Positions 11,464 through 24,976 of a stretch of 64,000 bases of DNA are shown here, one piece after another (positions within the stretch are counted from its first letter, which is position 1; each line of letters opens with the position of its first letter). The notes beneath the pieces are model-generated. The model was not told the DNA's origin, did not search any database, and worked only from the letters and a program-made list of their open reading frames with translations. Position numbers and translations under genes: made by a program. Location: positions 682,001 to 746,000 of the forward strand of contig RSEE01000016.1 in NCBI GenBank assembly GCA_003971905.1, written 5' to 3'. This DNA is from Moniliella sp. 'wahieum'. Lineage: Eukaryota.

Positions 11464-11680
11464 TGTAAGACCGGAGGAACCCAAGGGATTGGGTGAAGAA
11501 CCTCTGGAAATGTAGAGCAATGCAATCGCGATGGTGGTGGTTAAGGTCTAAGCCTTGTGCCACACCTAGAGACAGGGGTTCAGACAAGCCTGAGTATACA
11601 CGTGGAGGCTTCGGAGGACAAATCAGGGGTGAAGGGTGATGAGGCGCCTTGGCCTAAGTACGGGACCACGGGTCCCAACA
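11464..11680 (-). repeat. 3' LTR of the copia element (217 bp)
   Basis: TGTAAGACCG...GGTCCCAACA on the + strand, duplicated at 16804-17021. Confidence 0.96.
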
Positions 11681-11745
11681 CCCCCCCGGGCCAAGGGAAC
11701 GAAAGAAGCCCGTTGGCCATCAACAAAAGAAAAGTAGAAAGGGGA

Positions 11746-14700
11746 TCAGCGCGAAGAAAGAGAAGCCAAATCGAAATTGTTACGCGCAGAAATGATCTTG
11801 GGAAGAGAAAGAGGTTTGGTGAACCAGTCAGGGAGATGGTGTGCACCTGGAGTGTAGTGGACTTTAATTTCGCCTCGGTGGATGCGTTCCCGCACCTCGT
11901 GGTACGAGACGTCAATCTCCCGTATTTTGCCTAGGCTGCCGAGCTTTTCGGCCAACGCTTTGGCAGCGGTGTTGTCAACAAAGAGCTCAATCGGGTGATT
12001 AGCCTTGCAGACACCAAGTTCAAACAGTATGTTGCGAATGAATAGAGCATCTCGAAGGCCATCTCCCATGGCTAGGTATTCAGATGCTGCTGTGTTGCTC
12101 ACACCTTGATTTTGGGACTTGGAGCCCCAGGATACAGGCACACCGAAAACAAAAACAACATGGCCCGAAACGGAGTGAGAGTTGCTCTTGTCTGATGCAA
12201 AGGAGGCATCGGTGTGCAGCTCGAGTAGAGGGCGAGATCGGTTGGGTGTGAGGCACAAAGAGTAGTCAGACGTACCGGCGAAGAAACGTAATAGGTCCTC
12301 CGCTGCGCGTCGGTGGGCGGCGGACGGGTCGTCCATAAACCGCGCTAAAAAGGTAGCCGCAAAGAGGGCATCAGGCCGGGACATACGAGCCGCCCACAAG
12401 CTGGATCCGACAATAGAACGGTAGGCACGGTGCTCGTCTCGAGTGGCACGCTTTTCGTGTTCGGGTCGCTTGGGAGGCGGAAGTTGGTGGCCGATTGGAA
12501 GGTAGCGGGGCCGGTGAGGTGATATGTCATGCGCGGCAAGCGTCTCAGCGATGAATTTGGGTTGGCTGATGTACAGTCGTCCATCGATACGGTCGTATTG
12601 GCAGCCGAGATGGAAACGTAGGGGGCCGTTGGACTTAATTTGGATGCTGCGCCTTAATTCCACTAAGAATTCATCATACGCTTCTTGGGACCGACACGCG
12701 ACCAAAAAGTCGTCAGTGTGGACGGCGATTAGGATCAGGCCAAGAGGTTCGGTGCGACGTATGAACAGGCAAGGCTCTGATTTTAGGCTAGTGAAGTGGA
12801 GTCGGTCGCAAAGGAAAGTGCGGAGCCAATCTCCAAAGTTGGCCCCGCTCTGGTGCAGGCCATAGAGACTTTTCTTGAGTCTCCAGCAATGACCGGGCGC
12901 TTCTGGGAAGAAGGGGGGTGGTCGAACATAGACGAGCTCGTTGATATCGGCATAGAGGTAGGCAGCTTCCACATCGGCAGAAAATAAGTGGAGGCCATCA
13001 GCTTCGGCCAACGCAATTAGCGTGTTGACGGCAGCAGTACGAACGGCAGGAGCAAAAGATTTCGCCCATGTGCCAGGAACTTGCCGGTGCCCTCCCACAA
13101 CGTAGCGGGCACGGTACTTGAGGAAGTTAGCATCCGCATCCGTCTTAGTACCTATGACCCACATGCCGGGAAGGGGTTTGATCCCTGGGGGGATGGGTAC
13201 AACTTCCTTCACGTCACGCTCGTCAAAACGCCGAAGCTCGAGGCGCATTGCCTCGAGTACGCCATCAAAGGCAGGGTGACCCACCAACTTCTTGATGTTC
13301 TTGGGGGCCACCGGGACCCCATCGGTGGTCAGTATGACCTCGGTGTCACTTGCCGCGGATTCGATTGCGAGTGCAATGGGGGGCGAGCTTGGCTCCGAAG
13401 CAGGTAGCATGGATGTGTCCGGCGCTGGTCCGAAAATACTCACCAAAGCCTGCATTCCTAGGGCGGAGAGGGCGGCCGGGTTGCCAAAGATGCTAGGGGC
13501 CTTGTTGACGAGCAGGGAAAAGGTGCCATCGCGCAAATTGTCGTTGGCTGGAATGGACAGGTCGAGGGGTGGAGCGTTGATACGCGCTTGGCGAACGGGA
13601 TTGCGACGCACGAGTGCGGGGACGGCTGTATCGGTCAGGGGCACGGTCACGGGGGCGAGCGTGTCGGTGGGGGAGAGAGGGGAGGGGGATAGGGCGGGAG
13701 AGGAAGGGGAAGTGGAAGAGGGAGGGGAAAGCAGGACTTGGTGGCCAGTGTCAACGGCATCTTCTGTGATAGTTTCATTTTCTTCGGCTTGCTTTGCCTG
13801 GCGTTGTGCCATGCCTGCGGGGTCAGATGCAACAGGTTGGGGGGATACATGTGGGGGGTTGGAGTTGGTGGGAGTGGGGCCAGGCTCTGAATTCTCATTT
13901 TCGTTGGCTTGAGCCGGGCGATGTGCCTCTGTTTTTCGTTCTTTTAATTTTCTTTTTCCATGGGGGGCATTGTCTTTCTTACCATTAGTATCGCGGGTCA
14001 GTTCATCTATCGCAAAACGCACACGCCGGGGTGGGGAGCTGTCTGACTTCCCACCAGCACCCATTTCTCCGCCCCCCCGCACCTCTCCGCCACCAGCAGG
14101 GACAAGGGGGTCCAGATGAAAGTGCGTGGGATATTCGGTGGTGTACGGGACATGCGTCCAGGTGGACGGCTTTTTCCAACGGAATCCAACTTGGCCGTCG
14201 TCCTGGTGGATGGCAAAGAGCCACCCCTTCGAACCGCGGCCGTGCCCGTAACCCACCAACATTGCTGGGACGGCCCGCGGACCAAGTTTGCCGCCCTCGC
14301 GTTGGTTGGGCAATAGGTGCAGGTAGGCAAGAGTGCCAAAACCGCGCATGCGAAGGGAGGGTTTGAAGCCATGGTACCGGACAAATCGGCTGTCCCCACC
14401 CAGTGCTTTCGGCGGCGACTGGTTGTGTGCATATGTGGCCGCCAACAAGCTGTGTTCCCACCACTCGTCGGGAGTCAATCTGTTGGCGATTACCATGAGT
14501 CGAGCGCGATCCGTAATCGATCTTATGGCGCGTTCGGCGACCCCATTGGACGCACTTTCGCCAGGATTGGTGCGCTCGCTCACTACTCCCAGCTCGCAGT
14601 AAAACTCGTCCATTGCGGTGGTGAGTTCAGGCGCATTGTCAGAGCGGACCGTCTGAAGGGGGCGGTCGGGATGTTGGCGATGCTCGCGCCGGATGAAGGC

Positions 14701-16697
14701 TTGAAGTTCGGCTGTGGCATCACCCTTGGACACCAGGGGTAGCGTCCAGGTATACCGCGTAAAGTCGTCGACAATGATAAGGGCGTAAGTATGACCCGCC
14801 GCCTTGGCGGGATATGTCAAGGACGTCGAGGTGGAGGAGAGAGAAAGGGCGAATGGTTCGGATTGGGCGTCCAGTCGTGGCGTGGGTGGGGCAGTGGCTC
14901 TGCTTAATGCGCATGGTGCACAGTGCCACGAGGACCGGACTAAAGCGATGTCGCCACTGTTGACCCGTTCGAATGCTGGGTCATCCGACGTGAGGGATGA
15001 AAGTTGATCTAGAGGTGCATGATTCCATCGGATGTGGGCGTTTTTCACCTTGACCAGGGTTGCATCAAGGTTGAGTAGCGAAGTGGCGCTGTTGGCTGTG
15101 GCTGTCGTATTGGGCGCCAGAGTAAGGGAATAGCTTGAGTCGGCGGCGAGACGAAAAGGTTCGCCGTGTCGTCCGAGATAGAGACCATGGCCACCTGGAG
15201 GGATCCAGCTGCCAATGCCTGCGATAGATAGATGGTAAGCGCTGAGCAGGTTGGTCGGGAAGGTGGGGCAGTACAAGCTGCCGGGTAGGTGGATGCGGAT
15301 AGGGGCTCCGTTCTGGGTTTGAATGTACATAGAGATGGTGCCAATGCCTTCAGTGTATGCGATCTGTCCGTTTGCCACTGCTATGGGCTCGCGGTGTGGA
15401 CGAAGATTGATAAACGCACTTCGTTCATTGAATACGGATGGTCTCGCACCTGAATCGTGTTGCGCAGGGAGGTTGGCTGGCTTGGGTGGTGTAGTGGCTG
15501 CCATAGGGGTTACTGCATGGGCAGATGAGGTGGTCTGGGCTGTCGTAGCCGGCCGGCTAAAGTGGCCGCCACGTTGGCCACCACGGTGACTTCCTCTGTA
15601 CCCGCTGCCACCTCGGCCTCGTCCGCGGCCTGTCACCGTACTGCTTGTTTGGCTGTGCGACGTGGCTTCCGAAGGGGCCGTACTGGAGGGAGCTGGGCTT
15701 GAACTGGAGGTACTGCCGTAGTTGGAGCCTTTGAGTTCGCTCACTGCTCGGCGCAATTCGGCGTAGCTGCTGTTACGATGGAGGTGCAACCACCCCTGAT
15801 CAGTAACGCCTTTCCGTAGCATCTGTGCTAGACCAATCTCGTCCAGCTTGGACTTGGACGTCATCTCGTACTGGGTTACCGCCACAGTGAACTCATTCAG
15901 GTATTGGCGGCCCGACTTGGTGCCCATTTTGAGAGTGAGAACCTTTATGAGGATATCACAGATCTCAGTGTCTGAAACGGTGCCGTACAAATCACGCAGA
16001 GCATGATAGTATGCAGACCCTAGAGCCGGCGTGCCATCGCCGGTGATCTGCTGGACGACGTCGGAGTCTATCCACGGGAGTAGAATGTTGGCCAAGTGAG
16101 CGTCCAGTTCTGCGTTATACCCGTCCAGGGCCTTGCCCTGTTCCAGATGCTCACGCGCTCCAGGGATAATCTGGATACGAGGGAGGAAGATCCGGGTCCA
16201 TAACCAAAACGAGCTGTTGTTGTGGAAACGCTCGTGGTACGGCACGTTGTGCGAGTGGCACTACGGAGGAGCTTGTCGGGAGTCAAAGCCCACGGGTTGT
16301 CGTCGACGGCCGGAGTTGACGATAAGGCACCTTCGTTCTTGCTAGCATTGGGTGGATTCTCACATGATAACATGACAATGGCTTCTGTGGTCGTCTTTTC
16401 GCTGTACCCAAGCTTGATACCAGTGTCCTGTAGCTGTTTGAGGGTGATGTGTTCGGGAAACAATTTGAACATGTTGCGAATGCGGTCGGCGAGGGTGGCG
16501 ACGTCGTTCGCGGTGTTGTCGGGGCCCACGGGGGTGGGTTGAGGTGTAGGGGTAGATTCACGCGATGGTGTCAGCGGCGGGGAGGCGTGGTCAACTCCGA
16601 CGGGAGTGGTGCTCTCTTCTGCTCCGGCAGTTGGTGAAGTAGGGGTTGAGGAGTTGAACCAAGACTCCTGAGTCTGAGAGCTCATGATGCTTGCCAT
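11746..16697 (-). CDS. Copia Gag-Pol polyprotein (two provided ORFs joined by a frameshift near 16250)
   Basis: Protease HDSGA. Integrase HIRWNH..CAPC, VDDFTRY, RSDNAPE, SNGVAERAIR, GKLGPRA. RT KYRARYVVGG, DVEAAYL, LKKSLYGLHQSG, HTDD. RNase H HTDASFA, SVSG, SEY, DNTAA, DWFTKPL. Confidence 0.93.
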
Positions 16698-16803
16698 TAG
16701 CTTACGCAGTTCGAGCAAGCGCTTGTGGATAGGGCCGGCAGCGGAGGACCGAAGAGTGTAAGAGTGGAAGGCTCAGGGCTGAGCGTCAAGAGGATTGTAA
16801 CTC

Positions 16804-17021
16804 TGTAAGACCGGAGGAACCCAAGGGATTGGGTGAAGAACCTCTGGAAATGTAGAGCAATGCAATCGCGATGGTGGTGGTTAAGGTCTAAGCCTTGTGC
16901 CACACCTAGAGACAGGGGTTCAGACAAGCCTGAGTATACACGTGGAGGCTTCGGAGGACAAATCAGGGGTGAAGGGTGATGAGGCGCCTTGGCCTAAGTA
17001 CGGGACCACGGGTCCCCAACA
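16804..17021 (-). repeat. 5' LTR of the copia element (218 bp)
   Basis: Near-identical to 11464-11680 and followed by the TSD CCAGA. Confidence 0.96.
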
Positions 17022-18480
17022 CCAGAGTTGGGTCTGGGAACAGAGGCATCTATGTGAGTCGGATGATCACAGTCCACAACGCGGTCCATTCTGGTTCCTG
17101 CCCAGCATGCGCGTCAACGTTCAACGCTTCATCATCCGTCGTGCGCAGCTCTGCCCTCGTCGGCGCAACAGCGCCATCAGTGCCTCAGCTCAGGCCAACC
17201 TCGGTGCTCAGCCAGCCCCAGCCAATGGCGCCAATCGGTAGGTCCTTACTCGTTCAACAGGTCAAGCTCAAGGTCAAGCCGGTCACGTGGAAATGGTTTG
17301 ACTAGCGACCGCCCTCTCACGCTTCATTCACTCCGATGATCGATGAAGGGGGCAGGTGCTGTTCCGCATGTGGGGGCTTACGTCATGCGATATGTGCCCC
17401 CCCAACAGCTGGCCACTAGCGGTGTCATCGATCATCGACCATACATCATGCATCATCTAGAATCGAGCCATCGAGCCATCTGCAATCCCCGGTCCGTGCA
17501 CTTGACAATGCATCTCGGTTCTTGTCTTCCACCACCTTTGCAGACACCATGGCCGCTCCATCGCAAACCGAGTCCAAGGCACCCCTGTATGCAGCTGCTG
17601 ACTTTTGCCTCATTCCGTTTGGAACGGGTTCATCCTCGGTTGGAGCGGAATCGCTGAAGTGCAGCGCGTGCTCGAGTCCTTTACTAGTCAAGGTTTGATC
17701 TACAAGCTCCACGTTTACCGATTGTCATCGTTTGCTATGGCCTAACGTTGATTTCCTATGTGTTGTCGCTCAAAAGTGGATATGGGACGAACCTGGAAGG
17801 CCCCTGGCCGCTTGTCGCGCGCTATCGAGGCCTGCCATGAGCGACTGCACGAAAAGGGTGTTCCTCGGATCGCGACTGACATCCGTATTGGAACCAAGAA
17901 CCCTGCTCTCGGCTACTCTCCTCCTGAGGGAGGAGAGAACGCGCGCAAGGCCCAAAGCGTTGTCCGTCGCTTGGCTGTCGATAACAAGTCGGAAGCCTGA
18001 GCGCCGGATGGAGTTTGCCCGGTGCGGTATCGAATGCAGCACGCTCTGGTAGACATTTTGATGTATGCCAATGCACTCATCTCGTCCCAATGTTGGGCCT
18101 ATGCGCCCTTCGCAAGTCAGGATACTGCTGGAAGCCTGACCATTGTTTGGTCTACTTGGCCACTGCACTTCATTTTGTCGCAGGTCATCGTCATCGTGGG
18201 CTTCACTACCGGACTGGATGGTTACGCTTGCGTCCTGTGTTGTTGGAAGAGAGGTTGTTTCGCCTTTAGTAATGCTAGTAAGCCCATATGATGATGATGG
18301 TCGGAGACTATATATTGTGCTTTTTAATCTGGCAATCAGGGTGATCCTGACGTGGGACGAACGGCTTACCTCCTACTCCCGATGTGGATTCGATAAGGCG
18401 CTCGAGATATTGAGAAAGGCGAAAGAGAGGAGAGATGTTGCTATTTGATGGTTGGGACCTGAGGCCAGTGACTATTGAAT

Positions 18481-18789
18481 ACGAGGAGACCACCGGGCCT
18501 ACGGCCCGGTCTGCTGTGTCGCCACCTTAGCCACGTTCCCCCTTCGCCACGTAGCCACCGTTCCACCGGCCACCGTTCCACGCTGGAACCCTTCCACGCT
18601 GGAAAGTCGAATAATATCACCGATACGCGCTGGTGGGTGGCTGGGAACGTGGCACGGGGCATGCTGATGTAACAGTGCACAGGGGCGTTTGGATCTACCC
18701 TTTCTGAATTCATATCATTGACAGACTTAAGGCTGGGACAGGGGGAACGCTACGTCTAAACCGAACCGTCCATCTTGCGGGGTTACTTG
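18481..18789. repeat. Left inverted-repeat arm of the RT element
   Basis: 18705-18789 matches the reverse complement of 21784-21870 with 1 substitution and 2 one-base indels. Hairpin ACCGGGCC-TAC-GGCCCGGT at 18492-18510. Confidence 0.9.
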
Positions 18790-18879
18790 TATACCGGGTC
18801 AAGGCACGCCCCTCCTCCCCAACCCCCAACTCGCCACCCCCCGCGCCGCGCCCCCGACTGGGCTCCGAACAGCCAACCA

Positions 18880-21790
18880 ATGGCTACGGCGCCGAAACCC
18901 CACGCCCCACTACCCCACGCCCGCGCCGCGCCCCGCGCAGACAGCCCCCCCGCCGCCGCAACCCCGACCCTCAACCCCCCGCGCCCCGCGCACACCGCCC
19001 CCCCGCCGCCGCGGCCCGCCCCCACCACCACCGCCACCAGACGACCGCGCAACCCCTCGACCGAACGGGGCCGACCTCCTTCCCCGTTTGACCGCCCTGG
19101 CCGAGCGCCCAGGCACACGCAAGATACCGCCACACCTGAAGCGCCCTTTCCTCCAGATGCTCGGCCGTTTGGCGGACGCTTACTTGCAGGAGCCCTCGTC
19201 AGCACACCTGATGGATATTCTAGCGGTGCCTAAGGAAGTACTCCGCCACCACAACAAGGACAACAACCTCATCGGGACGTACCCCAACAGCGCCTGGCAA
19301 CTCCCTCCGCCCCCCGACTTCTCAACGCGCGAGGCACTCGACCCAGTCACCAAGGCCGACCGCCTCATTCGGGAGGGCTGCCTCAGCCGCGCAGCAAGTA
19401 CCCCTCGTCGGCCAATCCACCATTGCCCCTCTCACCCCCGAGACCCAGGCAAGCCTGGAAAAGCTCCATCCCGTTGGAGAGGCGAAACCCTTCAGCCTCG
19501 GCCCGGGCACAGCCTTTGGCAACACCACCACCCGCACTCGTCCCACCCACACAGGCCGCGTGGTACCGCCGGCACCACCCTCACCGACGACGGACAGTAA
19601 CCGTATCGTGGTGGACTTGGACGAAATCGACTTTGTTGCCTTGATTGCCACGTTCAGAATCGACGTTGGGGCAGGTCTATCCGGGTGGACCCAGCCCCTC
19701 CTAAGAACGGCCCTTGAATGCAAAGCGCTTCGTCGCCTTTCTCACCGCCCTCACCAAGAGTATTTACCACGGCACCGCCCCAGGACGCGAGCTCCTGTTG
19801 GCCTCCCGCCTCACCCCCCTGGAGAAGGCATCGGGAGGCATCCGCCCCATCGCCTGTGGGGAGCTGATCTACCCCTGTGCGCCAAGGCCATCGCTCGAGC
19901 GATCGCCCCCAACAGCTGGCTTCTCCCCACCCAGTTGGGAGTAGCATCGCAAAACGGGGTGGAGCCTATCGTACGGATGGTCGAGCGCATGACAGCGCCA
20001 GGCGGGGAGAACGATGCGGAACTGGGCGACTTCAGCCACGTCGCCATGCTCGACTTTACCAACGCCTTCAACACTGTGCGCCGTCGCACACTCGCCAAGG
20101 CGCTCCATGCCTACGCCCCCCATCTCCTCACGTTGGGCCGATGGATCTATGGTTCCCCCACCCAGCTCTGGGTCGCGTCGGGCGGAAATGAGACCAACGT
20201 CCTGTCGGCAGAGGGCGTACGGCAGGGCGACCCCCTCGCCCCCTTTTCTTCTCCATCGCAGTGCGGCCCACGCTGGAGAAACTGGAACAGGACCTGCCGC
20301 CGGGGCACCTGGTGATGGCATACCTGGACGACATTACGATCTTCGGTCCAGGGCCAGGCATTACCGGCCTAGCCGCGGAGATTTTGGAAGACGACGCGTC
20401 AGGCCTCAAGCTCAACCTGCGCAAGTGTGTCGAGCGGGACCGGGACCAGATTCGGGAGGATGGTCTGCAGGTTCTGGCACTTGTGTGGGAGGGGTAGACT
20501 GTCGTCGATCGTGGCTCCGGGCCCAACTGGCAAGTCTGAGGGAGAACATGCCTAAGTTTGATGGCATCACCCGCCAGGGACGCCTCTTACTATGGCGGCT
20601 CAGCACTCAGACCAAGCTGCGCCACCTGCTCCGCACCATGCAGATGGAAGGAGAGCTAGACGACGTGCTGGCCGAGATTGATGCCTTCATCTGTACGGAG
20701 TTCAGACGGATCCGGGCGACGAGGATCCCCAAGGTGCCAAGGACGACCACTTCGACATGCTCATGAGCCTGCCTCTTCGACTGGGAGGATGTGCAGCCCG
20801 CTTTACTCGTATATTGCGCCCCACGCCCGTGCCGCGGCCAACGAGGTCACGACTATCTATTACCACTTATGTTGACCGTTCGGGACCGCAAACTGCAAGG
20901 GCCAACGCATTGCGAAGCAACGCCAGCGCTGCCGCGAGATGTGGGAGCAAAGTCGACAGGAGCTGCTCCAGAAGCTGGACGCTGCCGATGGTCGCCATGT
21001 GGTTGAGCACAGCAACCCGCTGAGCCACAACTGGCTCTCCGCCATTCCATCCGTCCCGTACCTCAAGCTCTCTGACCAGCAGGTCCAGGTTGGTCTCCAG
21101 CTCCGCACGCTGTGCCGCACCACGCGCAGCATGTGCAAGTGCGGCGTCATGTCCTCGCTGGAACCACATCATGTCCTGCACCCGCACCCAGGCCAAGTTT
21201 GGTGCGTTGCATGAGGCAGTGCGGGAGCCCATTCTCCAGCTCCTCCGCTCCATCCCCGACACCCACGTCCACAACGAACCTATGGTGGAGGAAGATGGGA
21301 CGAGGCGCGGACGGAAGGCACAGCGCACCGATTACCGCGTGATGGGCCCGGAGCACTGGGGAACCGGAATGGAGGTAGACCACACGCTGCGCGACACGGG
21401 ATCGCAGGAGGCGCAGAGCGCGTACCGGCGGGGGTGCATGAGAGCACTGCGTCGCCTTTGGAACGCCGGGAGAAGGAACTGCTTCGGCTGCTTGAACAAG
21501 CAGAATGCGACAAGAACGCCAAGTACCAGGGACGCACTCAAGAACCGTTTTTCCCCCTGGTTTTGACGACGCGAGGATACTACGGCACCAAGACGGCGGG
21601 CAAGTTGTTTGCGCATTGGAAGGAGTTGGCTACTAAGTCTCAGTGGAAATGGTTCCTCGCTCGTATGTCAACCACGTTCCTCCGTGTCCACACGCGCTTT
21701 CTAGGGTACGGGACCGGATGGCGTGAGCCGGAGGGTCCTGATATCCTGGCGATCCCCTGGTCCCTTAATCTTGGTGGCGCTTCCAAGTAA
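18880..21790 (+). CDS. CRE/SLACS-clade-like non-LTR reverse transcriptase with C-terminal Cys/His motif and restriction-like endonuclease; multiple frameshifts; start codon uncertain
   Basis: RT: ASRLTPLEKASGGIRPIACGE, QLGV, LDFTNAFNTV, GVRQGDPLAP, AYLDD, LKLNLRKC, LPLRLGG. C-terminal part: WLSAIP, CKCG..H..C..H, EP, RTDY..EVD, KNAKY..FFPLVLTTRG. No apurinic endonuclease, integrase, RNase H or tyrosine recombinase motifs seen. Confidence 0.85.
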
Positions 21791-22164
21791 CCCCCGCAAG
21801 ATGAACGGTTCGGTTTAGACGTAGCGTTCCCCCTGTCCCAGCCTTAAGCTCTGTCAATGATATGAATTCAAAAGAGCGGCGGCTTATTTGCCAGCTGCAG
21901 TTTATGTGGTAAGCGTGCCACCCGGCACGTTCCAGTCCACCCGGCGCGTTCCAGTCCCGCTGCTGCACATGGGTGATAAAATTCCGCCCAAGGCGGAGTG
22001 GGGAATACCATTCCGCTCTCCAGCGTGGGACGGTGGAACAGGTGGAACAGTGGCTACGGTGGCGAAGGTGGACGGAGGAACGGTGGCTAAGGTGGCAACG
22101 CAGCACCAAGCACCAAGCTGGGGCAAAGCCCCAGACCGGGCCGTAGGCCCGGTGGTCTTCTAGT
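21784..22164. repeat. Right inverted-repeat arm of the RT element
   Basis: Reverse-complement homologue of 18481-18789. Hairpins at 22118-22134 and 22135-22153, then GGTCTT-CTAG-T. Confidence 0.9.
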
Positions 22165-24139
22165 GAATCTTAAGACATAGAGATTGAGGACTAGTGACAT
22201 GTGACAGGTTATTAAGCGGTACACACGCCCTTGCCAAGACCTAAAGCTATAATAGAGCGTTGCTCCGCAATTGGGCAAACTCGCAGAACCCGATAGGGAC
22301 TGCCGACATCATGGGACTAGAGAATCCAAAGAGGGACACATATTGGAGGCTACTATACTCGATCAATTGTCGATTCCCGATCGCTGGCAGGTGCTGGAGC
22401 TGGATCGACATGCAGGCTGCAAAATAAATAAAGCAGTGAGCGAGAACGTTCACTACGTTTACTGGGCCTAATATAGCATTTTAGTAGGTGTAGTTAGTGT
22501 ACAGGTCAGCCGGTCACCGGTCACATAGGCCACAGGTCACATTGCATGACAGGCCACACGCGTTACAATGTTCAACGTTCAACGTTCAACGTTCATCCAT
22601 CATCACAGGCCGATCATCGATCACTCGATCGCAAGATCTGCAGGCTCTGAGTGCAAAGCAATAATCGGTGATCATCGATCACATGTCACATGTCACATGT
22701 ATGCCACATTTTGGCGCTGGGCGCTAGAACGATTGTCGATAGTCGACAGAGGGCGATATGGACCTAACAGGGTCGGCCCGGTCAACGTCAGCACTCAGCC
22801 GGTCAAATCGAGGCTCGATCTCTTGCATCGAGCCGGCAAGGGGGCAGTGCTGATATGTTTCCCATCACGCGTCACATGCATGTTACACGCCACGCTTATC
22901 CTCGCCACTAGCACTAGCCATGCTTCTGGCCTTTAGATTGACAGAACAACCCTGTCTGGCTTGTTTTCTTCGGGATGCTCCGTTTGGGACTACGCGAGCC
23001 AACAGGACGAACCGGAACGCAGGAGCCCGAACAGGCATGGTCGATGGCCGGTGTAGCTTGTAGGCTGAGCGCTGAGGCGCGAAGACTATGTGGTGCTGGC
23101 GTGACCTGGTGTGGCCCCTTGAGGCAGCCTGAGGAGGGGAGGCGGCCTGGGTACCTAGTGGTGCGAAGCTGCATATCCAACGCGCTGCGCCACTGCTGCG
23201 CCTGACACGGGCAGGCCGCCCGATCGCTACACTGGACGTTGTTGCATTTTGAATCCCGCAGGCCTCATGCCTTGCTCTATGCCATGCACGAGCAGCCGCT
23301 GCAGGTAACGGGGCAACAGAGCAGTGTCAATGCCTGTGCCCTGCCAGAGCACTGCTCCACAGCTGCCACACTGCCCTGCGTGGTAGGGCATTGGGGCAGA
23401 CCGGAGGCAGCACACCGCACTCATGCCCCGAGCTCCGTGGCTGCACGACGATTGCGGAGCTGGGAGCGTGTCTAACTATGCCTGAGCCCATGCTGGGCTA
23501 ATGCGGGGGCGACAACGCACCCTGGCCTCGGTTGCTCTATGCACAGTTCTCCTGCCGTTCCCAGCGACTCCCATCCCGCTCGGAACAACACTCGAGGCGC
23601 AGCACTGGCCAGATGCAGAACGGCCCTGCGCTGTTGTTCCTTCCAGCTTCAACGTACTCATCCTCTCCCACTCGCACAGCCGGGGCGATGGCCTGCGATG
23701 CACGGTGGCGCTTCCTTCACACCGTGCGGTGCTGCACTGCTGCAATGATCGACAAGTGCCCCGTGCCCGCCTGCAGCTGTTCGTTCCTCGACACCCTCGC
23801 CATCGTGCCATGCCCCCGGGCCTCTTGCGAGTCAGAGTGTGTGGGATACGAGCGGGCTTTCCATAGCCTGTGAGTGACACATAAGGTAAGGTGCCACGCG
23901 CCACCCACCACCTTGGCGACAACTTCAGTCACTCTAGTCACTCTGTCCCATTTTATCTGGCTGCCTTTTCTGACTTTTGTTAGTCCCCCCCCCGCCTTCC
24001 TTTCTTCCACCAGTCCTTCCTGCCCCCATCCCTGACCAAGACCACGTTCGCCTTCCCATCACGCTCTCTACTCTGGACGTCCCCAGTATCTCTTTTGCTC
24101 TCGATTCGCCAACGCCTGCCTTCTCCCATTCCCGCAACC

Positions 24140-24976
24140 ATGCTGCCTCGGCCACTCGCTGCCGTTGTCACTGCTGTCATTGCGTCTGTGGCAGTCATTG
24201 TGCCTGCCCATGCCCAGACGCTTAACAATGTCACTTCTCTCGAAGGCACTTGGTCCAGTGGCTCGGGTAACGTTACTACGGGTCTCTCCTTCTTCAACCC
24301 TAGTAATGCCGCTTTCACTATCCCATCATCTGGGGGCATCGCCTACTCCTTTACCGACGATGGCTTCTTTGAGCAGGCCAAGTACATCTACACATCGAAT
24401 GGTGCGTTCTTGTACCCCTTCTTCGCTTGCTTCCCTGGCCTATATTCTGACACCTCCATCAGCTACAGTCAACCAATGCGTGAAGGCCTCGCTCATCTGG
24501 CAGCATGGCACGTACGTGATCAACTCCAATGGAAGTTTATCCCTCCAACCCTGGAAAACCGATGGAAAGATTATGATTATCGATGCCTGTGGCGCCCAAA
24601 CACTCACTCAATACTACTACTATCAACCTGAGCTCATCCCTTTGTGGTACAACTACATTGAGCCTGATTCGGGCTTTGGACCAAACGATCCTGCTAAGGG
24701 AAGCACGATGTATGCCCTGCAAATGTTCCAAGACGGAGGCGGTGGCCAGGCTGGAACGAAGATGGTACGTCTCTCTTGCTTTGCTCCCCCTTTCCCTTAC
24801 TGATGACTAATTGGCTACCACAGTCTGTAATGTACCTCCAGCTGCGCCCTCCAAACATGTTGCCCACCCAAGTTCTAGGGGAAAAAGTGCTCAACTCAGC
24901 CGCCCTTGCTTCATCCTCGGCCACTGCAGCAACCAGCTCGAGTGCGCCTGATCGACGCCGCCGCTTCCGGGCATGA
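24140..24976 (+). CDS. ROT1: ER chaperone Rot1-like protein; introns 24402-24462 and 24765-24823; 3' end uncertain
   Basis: Signal peptide, then SLEGTWSSGSGNVTTG..FFNP, GIAYSFTDDGFFEQAKY, C..ASLIWQHGTY, MYLQLRPPNMLPTQVL. Both introns restore the frame. Confidence 0.88.

Follow-up and report, generated by a model that had tools for sequence, protein, structure and literature searches.

A decayed Cnl1/MoTeR-like retrotransposon between inverted arms in Moniliella sp. 'wahieum': most likely an accident of insertion

A stretch of 64,000 nucleotides from the fungus Moniliella sp. 'wahieum' (contig RSEE01000016.1, positions 682,001 to 746,000; hereafter the window, with its first letter as position 1) harbours a unit of 3684 bp at positions 18481-22164, present as a single copy in the window (self-blastn). 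In this unit a decayed open reading frame (ORF) for a reverse transcriptase (RT) and a restriction-like endonuclease (RLE) lies between two long arms, 18481-18789 (309 bp) and 21784-22164 (381 bp), which are reverse-complement homologues of each other. With a probability of roughly one half, the unit represents one dead insertion of an ordinary RLE-type retrotransposon without long terminal repeats (non-LTR), of the Cnl1/MoTeR/CRE kind, made in a single integration event. The left arm would then be a second, inverted cDNA of the 3' end of this family, begun at the exact 3' terminus of the RNA and 309 nt long. The inverted tail copy is most likely an accident of insertion and not the hallmark of a new class of mobile element, for which an earlier note on this DNA had considered it a candidate.

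The inverted arms described in the earlier note were recovered by inverted-repeat search, by blastn and by global alignment. The best blocks in the inverted-repeat search were 57 nt at 98%, 33 nt at 94% (the extreme ends) and 24 nt at 96%, and blastn of one arm against the other yielded 90 nt at 95.6% (E 5e-34) and 87 nt at 80.5% (E 2e-14). Global alignment gave 265 identities in 292 aligned bases with 26 gaps, including indels of 28 nt and 19 nt, and slightly wider arm limits gave 270 of 299. The terminal 33 nt and the inner 90 nt are better conserved than the middle, and the arms hold short internal tandem repeats. The unit opens with ACGAGGAGACC.. on the left and closes with ..GGTCTTCTAGT on the right, the left outer end mirroring the 3' terminus with its terminal hairpin included. 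GAAT stands directly outside both ends; the chance of a 4-nt flank match in a fixed register ranges from 0.44% (composition) to 0.51% (309 of 60308 positions). Neither a poly(A) nor a simple-repeat tail was read at the unit ends. The symmetric termini, the GAAT pair and the missing tail had all been pointed out before and agree with the sequence as read here, and the description of the unit as enclosed by long inverted arms and a direct repeat of 4 bp is well supported. Since both ends of the unit are 3' termini, the points at which target-primed reverse transcription (TPRT) starts, and one duplication surrounds the whole composite, a single integration is the simplest account. The features of the unit are the following.

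18477..18480, no strand: left GAAT direct repeat, read as target-site duplication (TSD) of the whole composite (read directly; chance 0.44-0.51%)
18481..18789, minus strand: left arm, an inverted, 5'-truncated 309-nt copy of the 3'-terminal region (inverted homology to 21784-22164)
18493..18511, minus strand: terminal 8-bp G+C hairpin ACCGGGCC-loop-GGCCCGGU, left-arm copy (fold of 18481-18560, minus strand)
18790..18907, plus strand: junction and proline-rich low-complexity stretch, with the 5' untranslated region (UTR) and zinc-finger coding part of the family missing (profile match begins at 18908)
18908..21709, plus strand: decayed ORF with linker, RT, CCHC and restriction-like endonuclease (hmmsearch with the family profile; tblastn of the relative P0027; RVT_1)
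19632..20476, plus strand: RT domain with IRPIACGE, LDFTNAFN, GVRQGDPL and YLDD (translations, Pfam, family profile)
21108..21700, plus strand: Cys/His..H-x3-C-x9-(L)HE.., EP, RTD, E-x-D, K and PF.P.V..G, the restriction-like endonuclease domain (translations against the family alignment A1 and the MoTeR1 pattern in PMC12857005)
21710..22164, plus strand: 3'UTR of the forward copy, of which 21784-22164 is the right arm (beyond the end of protein homology; a contig of the food metagenome X1 ends at ~22162)
22134..22152, plus strand: terminal 8-bp G+C hairpin, right-arm copy (fold of 22085-22164)
22165..22168, no strand: right GAAT direct repeat (read directly)

In each arm end the 8-bp G+C hairpin lies 12 nt from the terminus, and the fold of 22085-22164 reaches -37.7 kcal/mol (z -2.46). 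Scans of the arms for Rfam families (E<=1) and tRNAs came out empty. The terminal-hairpin pattern had 0 matches among viral contigs and 4 in G+C-rich bacterial genomes, which were taken as chance. A fold-back assembly artefact would give identical arms; the arms differ by 9% and 26 gaps, and this explanation was therefore dropped. Repeat-induced point mutation was likewise dropped as the source of arm divergence, as the mismatches comprise 14 transitions and 13 transversions. At the inner edge of the arms a TAACCCCC unit is found at 21788-21795, and an inverted copy one C shorter at 18779-18785. TAACCCCC is the Cryptococcus-type telomere repeat, quoted for the flanks of Cnl1. Its interpretation as a telomere-repeat relic was not retained, the unit being indistinguishable from chance at 2 occurrences in the window where ~1 would be expected.

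The gene between the arms belongs to a widespread family. A phmmer search of 1.84 billion representative proteins with the RT piece at 19869-20246 returned 1279 proteins at E<=1e-3 and 181 at E<=1e-10, the best of them 50-52% identical and many ~1000 amino acids (aa) long. A word-based search with P0027 returned 117 proteins, mostly on contigs of only 3.3-4 kb, with Filobasidium floriforme and Aureobasidium melanogenum among the named sources. These searches show that fungal and metagenome data abound in such elements, members of a very large family of which most are unnamed; a family-profile search of viral contigs found no relative. For this profile 15 full-length relatives were aligned (A1). 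They share an N-terminal finger C.CG..H..C (invariant C, C, G, H and C), a low-complexity linker, the RT, and a C-terminal block C-x2-C-x7-H-x3-C-x9-RHE..EP..R(T/N)D..E.D..K..PF.P.V..G. In the translations of the window copy H-x3-C-x9-LHE, EP, RTD, E-V-D and K are retained across the frameshifts; the RT motifs and the C-terminal Cys/His plus RTD..D..K region that had been recognized earlier are indeed there. Pfam identified RVT_1 in 2 of the 7 ORF pieces of the window, with no other domain, and in 10 of 10 full-length relatives scanned. Apart from RVT_1 only one weak C2H2 was seen in these 7 pieces and 10 relatives, which yielded no tyrosine recombinase, RNase H, methyltransferase or GIY-YIG domain; the first two had already been reported missing. 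No transposase domain was detected in any frame scanned by Pfam.

According to the available text of PMC12857005, the endonuclease pattern of MoTeR1 reads C-x2-C-x6-H-x3-C-x9-RHD..E..R.D..E, and MoTeR1, Cnl1, SLACS, CRE1/2 and CZAR are placed together. When the A1 profile was compared with all PDB chains, R2 proteins led (E 7e-17 to 5e-13), with LINE-1 ORF2p behind (~1e-6); R2 and L1 ORF2p were the only relatives of solved structure in this search. Because the endonuclease spacing fits the MoTeR1 pattern and R2 is the top PDB match, the assignment to the RLE-type, CRE-like non-LTR elements with a C-terminal CCHC and endonuclease, as the earlier note had it, holds. It is made by domain architecture and motifs, the named elements being compared through the published pattern.

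The copy in the window looks 5'-truncated, without 5'UTR and zinc-finger coding part. The family profile matches from its position 136 (window 18908) to its position 1021 (window 21700) only (hmmsearch), and residues 161-1018 of P0027 align to 19073-21709 (tblastn). Along the ORF the frames run 1, 2, 0, 2, 1, 0, 1, 2, 1, which amounts to at least 8 frame changes in addition to 1 in-frame stop. The earlier description of a frameshift-broken ORF is thus right as to the break and wrong as to a single frameshift. Only 118 nt separate the left arm from the first profile match, and no trace of the N-terminal zinc finger was found in or near the element by tblastn or with a profile of N-termini. This finger, a mark of the CRE group, is invariant in the 15 aligned relatives, and its loss is read as truncation of the window copy rather than as a family difference. 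With an invariant part missing from the ORF between the arms, the unit is an incomplete element. The proline-rich linker coding region contains imperfect tandem repeats of 53 nt (81% identical) at 18926-19031.

Protein homology stops at ~21700-21709, and the 3'UTR comprises 21710-22164 (455 nt). The right arm forms the final 381 nt of this 3'UTR and is contiguous with the ORF. The first stop in the decayed frame lies at 21788, the inner edge of the arm and ~26 codons beyond the conserved protein end. The possibility that the arm is a discrete module ending at the stop codon of the ORF was abandoned, because protein homology ends ~80 nt earlier.

A single integration could have proceeded as follows. 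The endonuclease would nick both strands with a stagger of 4 bp. The 3'-OH of the bottom strand would prime the forward cDNA, which would extend for ~3.4 kb and stop short of the 5' end of the RNA. The 3'-OH of the top strand would prime a second cDNA, again at the 3' end of an element RNA, and synthesis would cease after ~309 nt. The templates were probably two RNA molecules with slightly different 3'UTR variants. Joining of the two cDNAs and fill-in of the stagger would yield the GAAT duplication, and the forward copy (~18790-22164) would have decayed later. This would be a variant of twin priming in which the second priming is terminal instead of internal. The indel-rich differences between the arms suggest two RNA templates with different 3'UTR variants, or later slippage in the short tandem repeats.

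Among public sequencing runs, three of one study were listed as holders of the stretch, and no RNA run was among them. Members of the same family were encountered in X1, a public food-metagenome run that holds part of the stretch and whose contigs were placed on 16500-24500 at a likeness of at least 85%. They cover 19409-21484 in pieces of 138-533 nt, and the outer arm parts, at 85-99% identity. At frame breaks of the window copy (for example after 20475, 20713 and 20792, and at 21164) they carry single-base indels of the sign that keeps the frame. The family thus has better-preserved copies elsewhere, and the copy in the window is a decayed member of it. One X1 contig follows the arm to 18603, continues with 20 letters resembling 18604-18623 and then restarts at 18481, that is, a terminal fragment of 143 nt directly abuts another terminus. 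This looks like the signature of a 5'-truncated TPRT product beside another copy, and it is hard to reconcile with ends of the transposase type. Another X1 contig stops at ~22162, the end of the element. Both arm variants seem to be represented among the X1 contigs, that of the right arm with the 28-nt segment and that of the left arm lacking it. No contig of X1-X3 was placed on the flanks 17301-18101 and 22374-24242; hence neither an empty or orthologous site nor a bridge across 18789/18790 is visible in them. Along the ORF body the X1 contigs have a word depth of 5-7, and on the arm ends one of 6.7-6.9; the summed depth climbs to 107.6 at 21753. Such depth is unsuited to ranking parts of the element and was left out of the evidence. 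Its rise in 21300-21840 could stem from many 5'-truncated copies with another 3'UTR variant, or from an unrelated repeat.

More distant relatives were collected from JGI metagenome contigs with the A1 profile, which identified at least 477 relatives among 599 matched stretches; the best 80 loci were analysed. A locus was scored as having inverted arms when a self-match on the minus strand paired a segment upstream of the profile match with one downstream of it. Such repeats around the ORF were found in 2 of these 80 loci (L055 and L079) and in none of the 27 loci that have the profile C-terminus and at least 100 nt on either side. In L079 three serial inverted 3'-terminal fragments (at least 44 nt, cut by the contig start; 23 nt; 292 nt) lie on the left side and adjoin a forward, N-terminally short copy, and the 292-nt piece includes C-terminal coding sequence. 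In L055 an inverted 3'UTR piece of 59 nt lies upstream of an intact ORF of 1288 aa and is itself preceded by an inverted internal piece extending to the contig start. To judge from their sequences, these pieces are variable-length inverted cDNAs without a fixed terminal module. Head-to-tail arrays are seen in L002 (2-3458) and L003 (835-4580), in which the N-terminus of the next copy follows ~0.9-1.05 kb past the ORF end. L016 and L018 contain the same 4.95-kb unit, circularly permuted, at >99.6% identity; together with L002 and L003 they represent either tandem arrays or circles. At the nucleotide level only short RT-coding stretches of the window element match the 80 loci, and its arms do not. 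Marks that TPRT could leave are the 4-bp duplication and the truncation of the window copy, with truncated 3' fragments and arrays in X1 and the relatives, the subfamily itself being represented by one copy.

Some further arrangements were noticed in these relatives. The first 92 nt of the L014 contig repeat an internal ORF segment in inverted orientation (1-92 against 864-958, 95.8%), directly ahead of a forward copy truncated at its 5' end; either a further 5' inversion with duplication or an artefact of assembly at the contig end would account for this. L073 (3-68 and 3387-3437) and L051 (84-152 and 3490-3534) each have one and the same simple repeat with a 3-nt period on either side, and L054 and L067 end in tandem repeats. 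These distant relatives suggest microsatellite-targeting lineages within the family.

Several observations weigh against a single double-primed insertion. The arms have far more indels per base than the ORF, and either two template RNAs or fast slippage in the arm tandem repeats is needed to account for this. The subfamily is represented in the analysis by one copy with flanks, that in the window, while the loci compared are other relatives that are at most ~50% identical in the RT. One copy also fits single-event and two-event versions alike. A terminal second priming with complete overlap of the cDNAs differs from the twin priming of L1 as presented in the available text of PMC12016303. The available parts of 10.1101/2021.08.11.455996, PMC12810828 and PMC11371274 describe no such RLE insertion, and neither the Cnl1 preprint (10.1101/2021.08.11.455996) nor PMC12857005 contains the word 'inverted'. 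No description of an RLE element between inverted repeats surfaced among titles and beginnings of abstracts, which is not proof of its absence from print. Finally, the X1 word depth is far lower on the arm ends than at the 3' coding end.

It is possible, though on balance unlikely, that the unit arose by two insertions. A 5'-truncated forward copy would have created the GAAT duplication, and a later, inverted insertion of the same family at its 5' junction would have been aborted after 309 nt without a duplication of its own. The relatives indeed insert beside or into their own copies, as in the arrays of L002, L003 and L016/L018 and the serial inverted fragments of L055 and L079. Cnl1, too, has been reported to insert into its own copies, often without a TSD (10.1101/2021.08.11.455996; PMC12810828; available parts of both). 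The arms, with their 28-nt and 19-nt indels, resemble different 3'UTR variants, and both variants are inferred in X1. However, the second nick would have to fall exactly between the left GAAT and the 5' end of the first copy, with neither duplication nor deletion. One duplication around the whole composite, which a single event predicts, would here be a coincidence of nick position.

It is improbable that the arms are the halves of an independent foldback or terminal-inverted-repeat (TIR) DNA element of ~690 bp with a 4-bp duplication, into the centre of which a 5'-truncated non-LTR copy landed. Such an element would account for the conservation of the arm ends and for the short tandem repeats inside the arms. 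A possible 4-bp repeat, CTTG, does lie on either side of the RT insert, at 18786-18789 and 21771-21774, and a high-depth X1 contig stops near 21767, ahead of the arm. The RT element would, however, be left with a 3'UTR of ~60-75 nt, while at least 200 nt follow the ORF in the relatives L001, L013 and L016. Furthermore, no transposase and no second arm pair were found in the window, nor any RNA family or tRNA in the arms. The 143-nt terminal fragment in X1 resembles a truncated TPRT product, and the analogous inverted pieces in L079 contain coding sequence of the RT element.

It is very doubtful whether in this lineage both nicked strands regularly prime at the 3' end of the RNA, with the inverted-arm form as a propagating, panhandle-forming variant and hence a retroelement that has long inverted repeats as its true boundaries; the idea derives from the arrangement in the window and its variable form in L055 and L079. 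Least probable of all is a true lineage with an RLE-type RT between long TIRs, in which the 5' end might be regenerated by fold-back priming on the 3' arm, for all that one 4-bp duplication and symmetric termini bound the whole unit, that the arms are best conserved in their terminal 33 nt and inner 90 nt, and that inverted repeats surround the ORF in two distant relatives too. The sole exemplar is heavily decayed and lacks the invariant zinc finger, and a second copy of the same structure is not in evidence in the window. The inverted pieces in L055 and L079 vary in length, are serial and reach into coding sequence. As regards the earlier note, its proposal of DNA-transposon-like ends and a new class is not supported: the right arm belongs to the 3'UTR of the element itself, and the left arm is an inverted duplicate of that tail which sets out from the exact 3' terminus. 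Its reading of the unit as mobile likewise lacks support in view of the incomplete ORF, the variable inverted pieces and the 78 of 80 related loci without arms. RT copies lacking the left arm, which it had named as evidence against itself, are at the family level the rule.

The genes in the window are fungal and include fatty-acid synthase, ELO, Rot1 and actin. The best named matches of the ELO protein (60-64%) are from Ustilaginomycotina (Tilletiaria, Violaceomyces, Melanopsichium and Ustilago). No gene is recognisable in the stretch around the retrotransposon, which is situated between a Copia element and a Rot1-like gene, and Pfam found no domain in the flanking ORFs; blastn located no further copy of the retrotransposon's arms or ORF elsewhere in the window. 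The Copia LTR retrotransposon at 11464-17016 has 213-bp LTRs that are 100% identical (11464-11676 and 16804-17016) and an uninterrupted frame of 1504 aa with RVT_2, rve and Pol_BBD. It is young and probably recently active, and lies 1.5 kb from the decayed non-LTR copy. To the right of the unit an inverted repeat of 16-19 nt (GTGACATGTGACAGG..) at 22189-22212 and 22678-22696 brackets ~500 bp and may be a small TIR element or chance.

The analysis adds a decayed Cnl1/MoTeR-like element in a Ustilaginomycotina-like fungus, with an unusual yet explicable insertion architecture, and is in itself of minor importance, with two points of modest interest. It provides a clean, TSD-bearing example of an RLE-type insertion of which both ends are 3' termini. 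If the single-event account is true, the second-strand nick would also be able to prime reverse transcription from RNA bound by its 3'UTR. This would bear on two-subunit integration models of the R2 kind and on the by-products to be expected when such enzymes insert genes. For annotation it is a caution that TPRT alone can make long "TIRs" around an RT gene.

Among known systems, DIRS and Penelope-like elements resemble the unit in that an RT gene lies between repeats, which may be inverted. The tyrosine recombinase and RNase H of DIRS/Ngaro were not found beside the window RT, however, and in contrast to Penelope-like elements, which combine a GIY-YIG endonuclease with a TERT-like RT, there was no GIY-YIG match, the endonuclease of the family being of the CCHC plus PD-(D/E)xK type. 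Unlike either group, the RT of the window family groups with R2 and L1 among solved structures. TIR DNA transposons are marked by a transposase gene, or by numerous copies with identical TIR ends and a TSD typical of the superfamily; no transposase domain was found in the frames scanned here, and no second arm copy occurs in the 64 kb. In the Tx1L/Tx1D composites of Xenopus a non-LTR element resides inside a TIR DNA transposon. They share with the unit an RT element between inverted repeats which possess a target duplication of their own, but the right 'TIR' of the window is a 3'UTR contiguous with the ORF and no arm pair without RT was seen.

R2 (R2Bm, R2Tg) is the best solved-structure match to the family profile, from the N-terminal finger through the RT (E 7e-17), and likewise has a C-terminal RLE and integrates by TPRT. 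Yet R2 is specific for 28S rDNA, the similarity is distant, and the endonuclease spacing of the family is that of the CRE/MoTeR pattern. With Cnl1 (Cryptococcus), MoTeR1 (Magnaporthe) and FoTeR (Fusarium) the family has in common a single ORF of ~1000 aa with N-terminal zinc finger, RT, CCHC and RLE. Full length is ~3.4-3.6 kb, as judged from the family contig sizes and the 3,494 bp of Cnl1, and the lack of a poly(A) tail is shared as well; 5' truncations, short variable TSDs and copy arrays appear to be further common traits. As stated in the available parts of 10.1101/2021.08.11.455996 and PMC12810828, Cnl1 insertions range from 25 bp to full length (3,494 bp) with TSDs of 0-13 bp that are often absent, and Cnl1 inserts into its own copies in subtelomeric arrays. 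The window copy, in contrast, is interstitial and lies outside arrays and telomere repeats, with a single TAACCCCC unit at 21788. Its inverted 3' fragment is absent from the published descriptions as far as their available text goes.

The closest parallel to the architecture itself is the twin priming of L1, an element with an enzyme of the apurinic endonuclease (APE) type and not of the RLE type found here. Twin priming is said to go back to the work of Ostertag and Kazazian in 2001. According to the available text of PMC12016303, it gives two opposed cDNAs, primed on both nicked strands and joined within one TSD, occurs in 18-22% of L1 insertions, and involves internal second priming with a median overlap of 12 bp. 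The inverted cDNA of L1 copies a more 5' part of the RNA, whereas the inverted piece in the window duplicates the 3'UTR completely; internal priming and small overlap are thus not features of the window unit. What both have in common is an inverted 5' segment and a forward, 5'-truncated 3' segment within one TSD.

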